64,000 bases of DNA, from NCBI RefSeq assembly GCF_045037415.1, contig NZ_CP173438.1; one strand, written 5' to 3'. This document shows positions 50,774-53,700 of the stretch, one piece after another (position 1 is the stretch's first letter; every line of letters begins with the position of its first letter). The position numbers are program-made. The DNA comes from Escherichia coli (GTDB lineage: Bacteria > Pseudomonadota > Gammaproteobacteria > Enterobacterales > Enterobacteriaceae).

Positions 50774-53700
50774 TGACACTAACGCCCGCACATTGCTGCG
50801 GGCTTTTTGATTCATTTCGCAAATGTGCTGATATTTTCCCCTCTAATCATTACAATTTAAATTTATGAATTATGCATTGATAATCGCTATTATAATATCG
50901 TTCCCCTGTGCATTATTATCAGTTTTTCTGGTATTAAAAGGCTGGGCGCTAATAGGAGATGCAATGAGCCACGCAATGTTTCCTGGCATAGTTCTAGTCT
51001 GGATTATAGGTATGCCGCTGGGAATTGGTGCATTTATTGTAGGACTGTCTTGTGCAATTGCAACTGGCTATCTGAAAGATAATAGCATTATAAAGAAAGA
51101 TACCATTATAGGTATCGTTTTTTCAGGAATTTTTGTCTTGACTATCAACAGGCACAAGTCAGCGGATTACAGATATCATTATTACATTACGGTTTACTCT
51201 GCATGGTATCGCCTACCATTTTTGCCACATTAAAAGCAGTCGGAATTATTCTGTCTATATACTATTAATAGCTCCAGGGTCTATTGCTGTCCTCATCATG
51301 CATCGCTTTCATAAGGCATTACTTATCGCCGTAACGATATCAATAACAATATCAGGCGTATGGTTATTATATTTTCTCAACAGAGCCCCAGCGCCGACAA
51401 TCGTCCTCTTATTTGCTGTAGCATTTCTTTTCGCGCTGATAATAATCAATTTTCGGAAACAATAATCTCAACAGTAGAATAAAGAGGCAAATCAATCATT
51501 ACATATATAAGATGGTGCTAATATTGTACCGCCTTTAAATTGAACTTTATCCTTTCACCCTTACACAATTTAAGGAATGCAGATGACTATTTTATCAGCC
51601 CCCAGCCTTTTTCCTGGTAATCGAAAACTTGAAAATCATTAACTCTAAGAAGTTCTGCCAAATCGTTGAAATTACTTTAAATTAGACTCGAACAAATCAA
51701 TCCCTGATGGGGCTTTTACTTATCCATTTAATCGGGTAGATATCGACCTCCATCTGCCCGCCTCAGATTCGTACCTGGTGGAGGTCTTTTTTCGTTACCT
51801 CTTTCCCCCTTTAGTTCAGTATAAAATCATCAAACTAATGCTGTTCACACTATTTACCTCCAGCATTCTATATAAATAATAGAAATAAAAACCCCAATAC
51901 ATAGTGCATTGGCATGACCAAACATCAATGCCATTATACTCGCCTCTGTTAAATACTCGCTAGTTAATATGATAGGCACGCATGATATAACAATCCATAT
52001 GCTAATACATAAATACATCAGTATTTTTCTCATAGTCAGTCCCTGTGATTAACAATCAAGGCATAGTTAAGCATATTTCACATTCAAACGTAAACATTAT
52101 TAATAACATTATATCAATCGAACTGACATCACGATTCAAGCCCTCTTCAAACTGAAGGTTAGAGCAGCGTAGAACATTTCAAAACAATACACTAAAAAAA
52201 TACCTGAACAAAAAACTTAATTCTTTTTTATTGTGAACTTTAGTGATTTTGTCATGCAACTCTTTATTACATTTAGGCCTGTATTATTTCATGGCAACGC
52301 AGATACAGGACCATTTCTTGTGCTATGGATAAGTAATAAGCTAGTTACATCTTATTAAGAGAACCATTTTCACATATCAAGATATCATCACCACCCACAA
52401 TGAATTAAGTATTTTTCTTATTCTTTAGATTAGATACGTAATGAATCCCTAACTCCATTCGGGTGTCATGGCTCTTTCATTTGAAATATATTCATATCCA
52501 ATGTAATATTTCCATGCGCAAATATAATCACCAACCATACCCATCATTTATTACAGAGAATTATTTTATTCACCGAAAGGTTTCACAAAATATCCCCTGA
52601 TAGAAAACTAAAAAACACTGCATAATATCGCTATTCTGGCACTTGCGAAAAATTATATTCTGCACCTGTTGTAGCGTTCTATTTCTCTGCCTGGCAACGA
52701 ATGCACAATGTCCGCCACAGTTTCTGTTCTAATTTCTTCCTGTGTTACCGCATCCTGTACGGGTAGCGCAACACCAGCATGCTAAGCAAGGCTTTCCCAT
52801 CAGATTTCACTACGACTATTTGGGAGCGAGATGGAATGCAGCAGTAAAACGTGCTGGTATTCGCCGCCGTAATCCGTACCATACGCGACATACTTTTGCC
52901 TGCTGGCTGTTGACGGCAGGAGCGAACCCGGCATTTATAGCCAGCCAGATGGGGCATGAAACTGCGCAGATGGTGTATGAAATTTACGGTATGTGGATTG
53001 ATGACATGAACGACGAACAGGTAGCCATGTTGAATGCGCGGTTATCGTAGTTGCAAAGTTTGCCCTCAATATGCCCCATTTAGTACCAGAGAACTGAAAT
53101 AATGCAAGAAAATCAACAAATTACAAAGAAAGAACAATACAACCTGAACAAATTACAAAAACGTCTGCGTCGTAACGTGGGCGAAGCCATTGCTGACTTC
53201 AATATGATTGAAGAAGGCGATCGCATCATGGTTTGCCTCTCCGGGGGTAAAGACAGCTATACCATGCTGGAGATTCTGCGCAATTTGCAGCAAAGCGCGC
53301 CAATCAATTTTTCGCTGGTGGCTGTTAACCTCGATCAAAAGCAACCGGGCTTCCCGGAACACGTTCTGCCCGAGTATCTTGAAACGCTGGGCGTTGAGTA
53401 CAAGATTGTTGAAGAGAACACTTACGGTATCGTGAAAGAGAAGATTCCGGAGGGCAAAACCACTTGCTCACTGTGTTCTCGTCTTCGTCGCGGTATCCTT
53501 TATCGCACCGCAACGGAACTGGGGGCGACGAAGATCGCGCTGGGTCACCATCGTGACGATATCCTGCAAACGCTGTTCTTAAATATGTTCTACGGTGGCA
53601 AGATGAAAGGTATGCCTCCGAAACTGATGAGCGATGATGGCAAACATATCGTGATTCGTCCGCTGGCCTACTGCCGCGAGAAAGATATTCAGCGCTTTGC

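Follow-up and report, generated by a model that had tools for sequence, protein, structure and literature searches.

The closest described counterparts of the gene reported here are small membrane proteins of phages, prophages, and toxin-antitoxin (TA) systems. GhoT and OrtT, from a type V TA system and an orphan toxin, respectively, are 57-amino-acid membrane toxins with two helices. The pinholins, exemplified by the class II holin S21-68, carry a GxxxSxxxG motif in the second transmembrane domain (TMD2). Phages also encode small envelope proteins, such as T4 Imm, T5 Llp, phi80/HK022 Cor, and lambda Bor, and the K-12 prophages encode the small proteins YnfS, YnfU, and YnaL, which classical annotation missed. 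Type I TA loci of the Hok/Sok kind include hokD in Qin and hokW-sokW in Sp5. The prophage locus hokW-sokW promotes phage release, and the paper that describes it mentions no upstream gene (PMC8621323). Here, we describe ORF59, our name for a 59-codon open reading frame (ORF) in a 64,000-nucleotide stretch of Escherichia coli DNA (the window; NCBI RefSeq assembly GCF_045037415.1, contig NZ_CP173438.1). The copy in the window belongs to clade A of a family whose second member, clade B, resides in lambdoid prophages. At slightly better than even confidence, we favor the reading that ORF59 is a genuine phage-derived membrane-protein gene that was selectively retained in phylogroup B2 after its prophage decayed.

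The first-pass annotation of the window had listed a minus-strand, ATG-initiated ORF of 59 amino acids, and an ORF listing recovered it with the same coordinates, start, and length:

51854..52033, minus strand: ORF59 (clade A), 59 codons plus stop, ATG start; predicted product a small two-helix membrane protein

The product, MRKILMYLCISIWIVISCVPIILTSEYLTEASIMALMFGHANALCIGVFISIIYIECWR, has a grand average of hydropathy (GRAVY) of 1.37. Hydrophobic stretches span residues 4-23 and 33-55, with Kyte-Doolittle maxima (19 residues) of 2.58 at residues 4-22 and 1.94 at residues 35-53. An AlphaFold2 model with a mean pLDDT (predicted local distance difference test) of 83 is a helical hairpin composed of residues 2-24 and 30-58, and the two hydrophobic segments claimed at first pass are supported by both the maxima and the model. 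Residues M1, L5, L8, W13, S17, C18, P20, I22, T24, L36, G39, N42, A43, L44, E56, W58, and R59 are invariant across both clades, and I21, Y27, F38, G47, V48, F49, and I55 are near-invariant. In helix 2, the invariant G39 and A43 and the near-invariant G47 form the glycine-zipper pattern G39xxxA43xxxG47, and such zippers suit tight helix packing, self-association, or oligomerization. The N-terminus resembles a lipoprotein signal peptide, with MRK or MK, 11 hydrophobic residues, and [VF][IAV]S-C18. A PROSITE PS51257-type lipobox rule matches at Cys18 in both clades and in 0.9%-1.7% of composition-matched shuffles, with the F at position -3 of clade B falling outside the strict lipobox. The C-terminus (...IE[CY]WR) directly follows helix 2 and has no charged tail. 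The product may be an N-in/C-in helical hairpin or, if the lipobox is processed, a lipid-anchored single-pass inner-membrane protein.

ORF59 resembles each of the known systems in part. Like the Hok/Sok loci, it encodes a predicted small hydrophobic membrane peptide in the same nin neighborhood, and its size, GRAVY, and two helices are those expected of a type I toxin. Hok, however, has one helix and ORF59 has two, and the Hok/Gef profile (PF01848) does not match either clade at E values up to 10, whereas the adjacent remnant at 51697-51798 is a Hok homolog. ORF59 also differs from type I systems in that no conserved antisense RNA gene was found (no promoter-like site in clade B, and only noise in Rfam over 50000-54000). 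Nor is the mRNA unusually structured, as a toxin mRNA that hides its ribosome-binding site would be, with minimum free energy z-scores against dinucleotide shuffles of +0.58 in the window and -1.2 in clade B. GhoT and OrtT are nearly equal to ORF59 in size and share the predicted two-helix transmembrane hairpin, but Pfam (E up to 10, both clades) and NCBIfam gave no family match, and no GhoS-like partner is annotated beside ORF59 in the loci inspected. Like S21-68, ORF59 has two predicted transmembrane domains and a small-xxx-small-xxx-small zipper in the second. It lacks the charged cytoplasmic C-terminal tail and a conserved dual start (M6 is polymorphic, and Q in clade B), and the lysis cassette is separate, so that ORF59 is not next to the endolysin. 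With Imm, Llp, Cor, and Bor, it shares the character of a small envelope protein in temperate-phage cargo, a candidate lipobox, and low GC content, but no homology was detected (best PHROGs match phrog_6298, function unknown, not significant at E = 0.12; no PADLOC anti-phage defense family), and clade B lacks its own promoter and terminator. As in phage morons, base composition is distinct, with 36.7% GC in clade B against 49%-54% in neighboring phage genes, but the flanking promoter and terminator of a moron were not found. The charged n-region, h-region, and Cys18 lipobox of a bacterial lipoprotein are predicted in both clades. ORF59 is also a short prophage ORF missed by classical annotation, as were YnfS, YnfU, and YnaL, but it matches none of their Pfam or NCBIfam models and is absent from the K-12 Qin region examined. 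A PDB sequence search gave no match, and Foldseek comparisons of the ORF59 model with BFVD and PDB returned only generic helical hairpins (E > 1). The ORF59 family is previously undescribed and belongs among the familiar small prophage-encoded membrane proteins, rather than representing a new kind of system.

Frame conservation between two clades

A word-indexed protein search with ORF59 returned only near-identical E. coli copies. Clade B was found by searching 1.84 billion cluster representatives exhaustively with phmmer (E = 1e-10), together with a profile search. Its carriers are Rac/Qin-type lambdoid prophages of E. coli and Shigella, and its protein has the sequence MKNALQFLFVAFWLF[AV]SCMPIIFTARYMEK[IV]DVLIL[MI]FG[HY]INALFLGVFMAVMCIEYWR. 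Protein identity between the clades is 41%-44%, and the two align without gaps, with the same start, 59 codons, and the same stop position. The corresponding codon alignment has 59% DNA identity (0.58, 0.71, and 0.49 at codon positions 1, 2, and 3). Its BLOSUM62 sum is 162 in the ORF59 frame compared to -2 to 60 in the other five frames, each of which is interrupted by stops in at least one clade. When the same 72 differences were placed at random in neutral simulations (n = 20,000), the sum was 53±19 with a maximum of 125, and the frame stayed open in only 7.5% of them. Nei-Gojobori estimates were 0.44 for dN and ~2.3 (saturated) for dS.

A set of 93 loci was assembled from E. coli genomes, deposited phages, and IMG/VR. 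The exact 59-codon frame is retained in 89 of them; in the other four, it is altered by an IS1 insertion, an inversion, and, in two cases, a single-base change close to the stop. Conservation of the frame in relatives had been proposed at first pass as a check on this ORF, and the outcome favors a gene. Because conservation between the clades is specific to the frame (162 vs 53±19) and the frame persists across the loci, the family is, as judged by these alignments, protein-coding, and the ORF59 of the window is very likely a real gene. The other suggestion made at first pass, a spurious ORF in AT-rich DNA, is essentially refuted by the conserved frame and coding-type substitutions of clade B. 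Two apparent frameshifted relatives, P0007 and P0013, were not counted as decay; every gene in their source assemblies (L002 and L003) is fragmented.

The initial caution was justified, because ORF59 is unremarkable when only its own sequence is considered. The surroundings are AT-rich, as first described, with 31%-37% GC across 51200-52800, and when the 1.2-kb scar is shuffled under a first-order Markov model, 44% of the shuffles yield an ATG ORF of 59 codons or more. Thymine occupies 47% of the second codon positions, so a hydrophobic peptide arises automatically. A Shine-Dalgarno (SD)-like element precedes the start codon:

52040..52044, minus strand: weak SD-like AGGGA, 6 nt upstream of the ATG; aligns with AGGAGG of clade B

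This element pairs with the anti-SD sequence at only -4.8 kcal/mol, in agreement with the earlier remark that no strong ribosome-binding site is present. The clade B counterpart, AGGAGG-aata-ATG, reaches -10.2 kcal/mol, and ~20% of 20-mers drawn at random from the scar attain -5 kcal/mol. The length, hydrophobicity, and weak ribosome-binding site of ORF59 are no more than chance yields in AT-rich DNA.

Three phage records (PV340562, ON470612, and ON470619) annotate an ORF on the opposite strand, named "hornerin" or hypothetical:

5907..6158 in both L015 and L016 (PV340562, ON470612), strand opposite to ORF59: 83-amino-acid ORF from phage record annotation

Clade B keeps the opposite-strand frame open, clade A interrupts it with 2 stops, and it scores a BLOSUM sum of 54 compared to 162 for ORF59. 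Because this frame is not conserved between clades, the phage records probably annotate the wrong strand here. The window has an antisense promoter-like site (TTGGCA-17-CATTAT) at 51909-51937, which is absent from clade B in a consensus scan of L016 5500-6800.

Clade A DNA is carried by 1044 of 5426 complete E. coli genomes, including ST131, UTI89, LF82, and Nissle 1917, and clade B DNA by 1569 of the 5426. Clade B lysogens include ETEC H10407 and ECOR13. No Prokaryotic Genome Annotation Pipeline (PGAP) feature underlies either clade among the matches listed. The first-pass description of ORF59 as unannotated therefore stands for RefSeq but not for all of GenBank, where some records call it "hypothetical protein"; JGI lists an "uncharacterized membrane protein." A scan of 100,044 species-representative genomes for the family produced a single hit, a "Collinsella sp." metagenome-assembled genome (MAG) contig (JAIJJM010000167.1, L097, 5.5 kb). 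This contig was rejected as a non-Escherichia carrier. It is 92%-99% identical to an E. coli lambdoid phage, with a clade B ORF59 aboard, and is almost certainly a binning error. Since the sole hit outside is a mis-binned E. coli phage contig, the family, with both clades in lambdoid prophages, looks confined to Escherichia and Shigella. The gene is absent from the K-12 Qin region examined, so K-12-centered small-protein and Ribo-seq surveys may have had no copy to detect, which may explain the lack of reports; the INRI-seq supplement covers K-12 only. No paper in the literature library searched contains peptide strings of the family, and broader searches on small-protein work found nothing specific. 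No intact phage carrying clade A was found among the phage records and loci searched.

The prophage scar and its hok neighbor

The region containing ORF59 is part of a phylogroup-B2 E. coli chromosome (ST131-like) and is identical to O25b:H4 and other B2 chromosomes. Genes are ordered nifJ-ompN-uspF, then ~2.3 kb, then ttcA-dbpA, and PGAP annotates only pseudogenes in the ~2.3-kb uspF-ttcA interval. Fragments of known phage genes (marked here with a prime) were identified in this interval, as follows:

50865..51465, plus strand: sitD-like ABC-3 metal permease pseudogene (sitD'), frameshifted and AT-rich; PGAP; at the far end of the scar, adjoining uspF
51697..51798, minus strand: hok-family toxin pseudogene (hok'), 3' part only; 80.6% nucleotide identity to hokD over 62 nt (51799->51738)
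51805..51853, minus strand: remnant of the ORF59-hok spacer; ~50 bp homologous to the clade B spacer as far as the hok promoter region (z = 3.9 vs shuffles)
52587..52700, minus strand: fragment of a DUF977 (LygF/YdaV-like) phage replication-region gene; 73%-77% identity to the DUF977 genes of L012, L016, L018, and L090
52692..52807, minus strand: fragment of a DUF1627 (YdaW-like) gene; PGAP pseudogene (L001), 77%-86% identity to Rac-type phages
52820..53050, plus strand: C-terminal fragment of a Rac-type tyrosine integrase (int'); PGAP pseudogene and ORF translation; abuts ttcA, the Rac attachment gene, on the attachment-site side

The prophage-remnant setting claimed at first pass is borne out by these fragments. 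From the pieces of sitD, hok, DUF977, DUF1627, and int, we interpret 50865-53050 (~2.2 kb) as the skeleton of a single Rac/lambda-type lambdoid prophage in which ORF59 is the only intact gene. In phylogroup-B2 E. coli, this prophage would once have been integrated at the ttcA attachment site. The proteins of sitD' and of the SitD cargo gene in phage 21 and lambda-like phages are 72% identical, and sitD' is therefore prophage cargo rather than a remnant of a chromosomal transporter. Translation of hok' gives VTKKDLHQVRI*GGQMEVDIYPIKW..., which is interrupted by an in-frame TGA. Deletion has removed the promoter, the sok region, and the N-terminus, and ~235-273 nt are missing compared to clade B loci. 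A plus-strand terminator considered at 51745-51792 (hairpin GACCTCCA...TGGAGGTC followed by a T-run) was rejected; it lies inside the hok coding remnant and is not free-standing.

On the minus strand, the order is DUF1627', DUF977', ~550 bp of unmatched AT-rich DNA, ORF59, the spacer remnant, and hok'. Upstream of the ORF, similarity between clades A and B is not significant (z = 1.05), except for a common TTGATTGT. Within the unmatched DNA, 52113-52586 (~475 bp, 31% GC) has no phage, plasmid, or protein match and no ORF longer than 41 amino acids. In one genome, IMGVR_UViG_2684622582_000011 (L017 1-4882), similarity to the window is lost past the 5' end of ttcA (window ~53151), which suggests that a further prophage occupies this attachment site next to the old scar.

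The same arrangement is found in intact phages. The clade B gene of Rac/Qin-type phages is preceded by cI/cro/cII, O, and DUF977 (LygF) and followed by hok, rem, ydfU, rusA, and Q, and it is co-oriented with the rightward early ("nin") operon and the replication genes. In 76 of the 93 loci, the distance from the ORF59 stop to the start of a hokD-type gene is 200-202 nt. The window order matches, with ORF59 followed by a dead hok and with DUF977' and DUF1627' upstream and co-oriented. The clade B spacer between ORF and hok reads as a full hok promoter and leader. The ORF itself (36.7% GC) and its upstream spacer (38%) are lower in GC than the neighboring phage genes. A crude consensus scan of L016 5500-6800 on either strand identified no sigma-70-like site, and the sole terminator follows hok. 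The lysis cassette of L016 is located ~5.5 kb downstream of the clade B ORF.

The hok locus 3' of clade B in L016 (6237-6700) looks complete. It has a promoter-like TTGCGG-16-TAGAAT, a terminator at 6664-6681, and an upstream start of the mok kind, and its leader resembles the 5' end of the R1 hok mRNA. In Qin-type phages (L015 and K-12), an insertion sequence (IS), flxA, ydfV, and relBE are located between ORF59, or its former site, and hokD.

The scar contains a destroyed hok adjoining an intact ORF59. ORF59 may or may not be the membrane-active toxin or regulator suggested at first pass; the true membrane toxin of this site is the dead hok gene. Survival of ORF59 where hok was destroyed fits a product that is harmless to the host, and the intact state of ORF59 argues somewhat against an unguarded toxin.

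Polymorphism in phylogroup B2

Ten B2 lineages were aligned over 50301-53600: the window (identical to an O25b:H4 genome), UTI89, LF82, Nissle, 04-00955, SCU-115, Z1323HEC0016, A24, HM670, and S87. ORF59 contains one single-nucleotide polymorphism (SNP) in 180 bp (M6V; 0.56% per site), compared to 45 SNPs in 1055 bp (4.3%) of flanking scar, with 4.4% to the left of the ORF, 4.2% to the right, and 3.2% per site in sitD'. At the scar rate, 7.7 SNPs are expected in ORF59 (Poisson p = 0.004). We estimate that the scar rate is approximately neutral, because 9 of the 10 variable codons of ttcA are synonymous. All 180-bp scar windows with one SNP or fewer overlap ORF59, and the scar has its longest SNP-free gaps at 51804-52018 and 52018-52113. 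Two further features were mapped from these data:

51805..52112, no strand: SNP-poor island, 1 SNP in 308 bp across the ten B2 lineages; includes ORF59, 49 bp downstream, and 79 bp upstream
52108..52116, minus strand: candidate extended -10 element TGATATAAT, a sequence match 75 nt upstream of the ORF59 start codon, at the upstream edge of the SNP-poor island

This depletion of SNPs is the best evidence for selective retention of the window copy of ORF59.

It is possible that TGATATAAT serves as a promoter element for ORF59. The promoter scan of the window did not report it, as no -35 element is present. SNP 52113 (plus-strand A in the window, G in the other nine lineages) is the first T of the hexamer and produces TATAAT in place of CATAAT on the minus strand, which makes the match to an extended -10 perfect. 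The window is the only one of the ten lineages with the TATAAT allele.

Other variants were observed in and beside the ORF. In 52701-53050, which includes DUF1627' and int', there are 3 SNPs in 350 bp across the ten lineages, with ~15 expected at the scar rate; this scarcity may stem from the promoter region of ttcA or from recurrent recombination with Rac-type phages that enter the cell. Clade A protein variants other than M6V exist. A blood isolate (NZ_CM132302.1, L010 2249-2946) has IS1 inserted at the last ORF59 codons, and database variants ending in ...ECWVMLPTY or ...ECWVMVPTY match an IS1-type insertion. In GCA_004181975.1 (L004 1-264), a rearrangement fuses int' (window 52874-53000) to ORF59 from codon 13, removing 12 codons. 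The junction is at a short MWI/IWI microhomology, and the chimeric ORF is annotated as a partial integrase.

Candidate roles and rival explanations

If ORF59 is a retained phage gene, we propose that it would be expressed from the early rightward transcript in live phages and that its product would insert into the inner membrane, where helix 2 would probably mediate self-association or partner binding. At the cytoplasmic membrane, the protein would serve as an accessory factor of the phage that either does the host no harm or benefits it, and B2 strains would have kept the gene by selection as the rest of the prophage decayed. A harmless or useful product is favored because hok was inactivated while ORF59 was preserved with reduced polymorphism. 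Our leading guess for its role, a tentative one, is protection of the envelope or exclusion of incoming phage or membrane toxins. Next, and with less confidence, comes a lysis or toxin-accessory role together with Hok, an idea kept alive by the finding that hokW-sokW promotes phage release (PMC8621323). A bolder version, which we regard as doubtful, is that ORF59 is a domesticated gene under purifying selection across B2 (ST131, UTI89, LF82, and Nissle 1917) that founds a new family of small inner-membrane (lipo)proteins and protects the envelope by superinfection exclusion or neutralization of Hok-type toxins. Were this so, the pairing of ORF59 with hok/sok would be a functional two-gene module rather than mere adjacency.

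Several observations weigh against the favored reading. The SNP-poor island includes 128 bp of non-coding flank, and the dead integrase fragment is likewise SNP-poor (0.86%). Low diversity at the scar can therefore arise without protein-level selection, for example by recombination, and the scarcity of SNPs in DUF1627' and int' weakens SNP depletion as proof of selection. The polymorphisms seen within clades in the coding sequence (A16V, I31V, M37I, H40Y, V48G, and M53T in clade B and M6V in clade A) are all nonsynonymous, although power is low, and there is no direct short-range dN/dS signal for ORF59, again at low power. Rare strains carry disrupted alleles, which include the IS1 insertion, the int'-ORF fusion, a 57-residue form without W58 and R59, and deletion variants; judged by these alleles, ORF59 is dispensable. 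The SD of the window is weak and no better than chance, the native pR promoter has been lost, and the candidate promoter is a sequence match. Clade B is not a textbook moron, since the scan found no flanking promoter or terminator. No specific role is supported by a match to any family, structure, or paper, and the roles proposed here are inferred from architecture and context.

A first alternative is that the family is real in live phages but the window copy is an unexpressed leftover that does nothing in this genome and is intact only because it is short and the scar is young. We consider this a serious but clearly less probable explanation. It accounts for an SD that has degenerated relative to clade B (-4.8 vs -10.2 kcal/mol), for the breakage of all neighboring phage genes, hok included, for a sole common SNP that is nonsynonymous (M6V), for the tolerance of disrupted alleles, for an int' fragment that is SNP-poor without being a gene, and for the failure to find an intact clade A phage. 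It does not readily account for 1 SNP where ~7.7 are expected (p = 0.004), in the only such window of the scar, or for ~1 change at nonsynonymous sites where we estimate 6. All residues conserved between the clades are still present in the window copy, whereas sitD' and hok' in the same scar gained frameshifts and a nonsense codon. A second alternative, which we judge unlikely, is a membrane toxin or lysis accessory, that is, a pore-forming or depolarizing peptide (Hok-, GhoT-, or pinholin-like) that would aid Hok or a holin at phage release. The predicted protein is small and very hydrophobic with two helices, its helix 2 glycine zipper resembles the pinholin GxxxSxxxG, and the gene is tightly linked to hok/sok, a type of locus (hokW-sokW) shown to promote phage release (PMC8621323). 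Against a toxin are the lack of any Hok, GhoT, or holin family match, an antisense promoter that is not conserved between clades, an mRNA that is not unusually structured (z of +0.58 and -1.2), a C-terminus without a charged tail, and a lysis cassette ~5.5 kb away in L016. In addition, no antitoxin is visible, and yet ORF59 stays intact in a scar whose real toxin, hok, has been inactivated.

The two remaining explanations deny that ORF59 encodes the functional product. That it is a chance open frame in AT-rich DNA is very improbable. Shuffled scar sequence does give an ATG ORF of this length in 44% of cases, a T-rich second codon position does yield hydrophobic peptides, the SD is weak, and PGAP makes no call, but an ungapped 59-codon homolog exists (59% DNA and 44% protein identity), with frame conservation far beyond neutral simulation and a frame kept in 89 of 93 loci. 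We give even less credence to a functional element on the other strand (the 83-amino-acid ORF) or a functional RNA (small RNA or antisense). The annotation of the opposite strand in three phage records, the open state of that frame in clade B, a SNP-poor island that exceeds the coding sequence, and the antisense promoter-like TTGGCA-17-CATTAT at 51909-51937 would fit such an element. In clade A, however, 2 stops interrupt the opposite frame, its BLOSUM sum is 54 vs 162, Rfam shows nothing above noise, the antisense promoter is absent in clade B, and the folds are not unusually stable.

A conserved family of 59-residue predicted membrane proteins is left unannotated by RefSeq in about half of complete E. 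coli genomes (1044 + 1569 of 5426). Carriers of ORF59 include the extraintestinal pathogens ST131 and UTI89, the Crohn's-associated LF82, and the probiotic Nissle 1917. Three deposited phage genomes probably annotate the wrong strand at this locus, an error that the comparison between clades would correct. If functional, ORF59 would be a well-defined small-protein target with natural knock-out alleles and may reveal a protein that partners or counters Hok-type toxins, or else a new factor in phage exclusion. The value of the finding lies in a widespread yet overlooked gene, a hint of domestication in B2 pathogens, and a fixed pairing with hok/sok.

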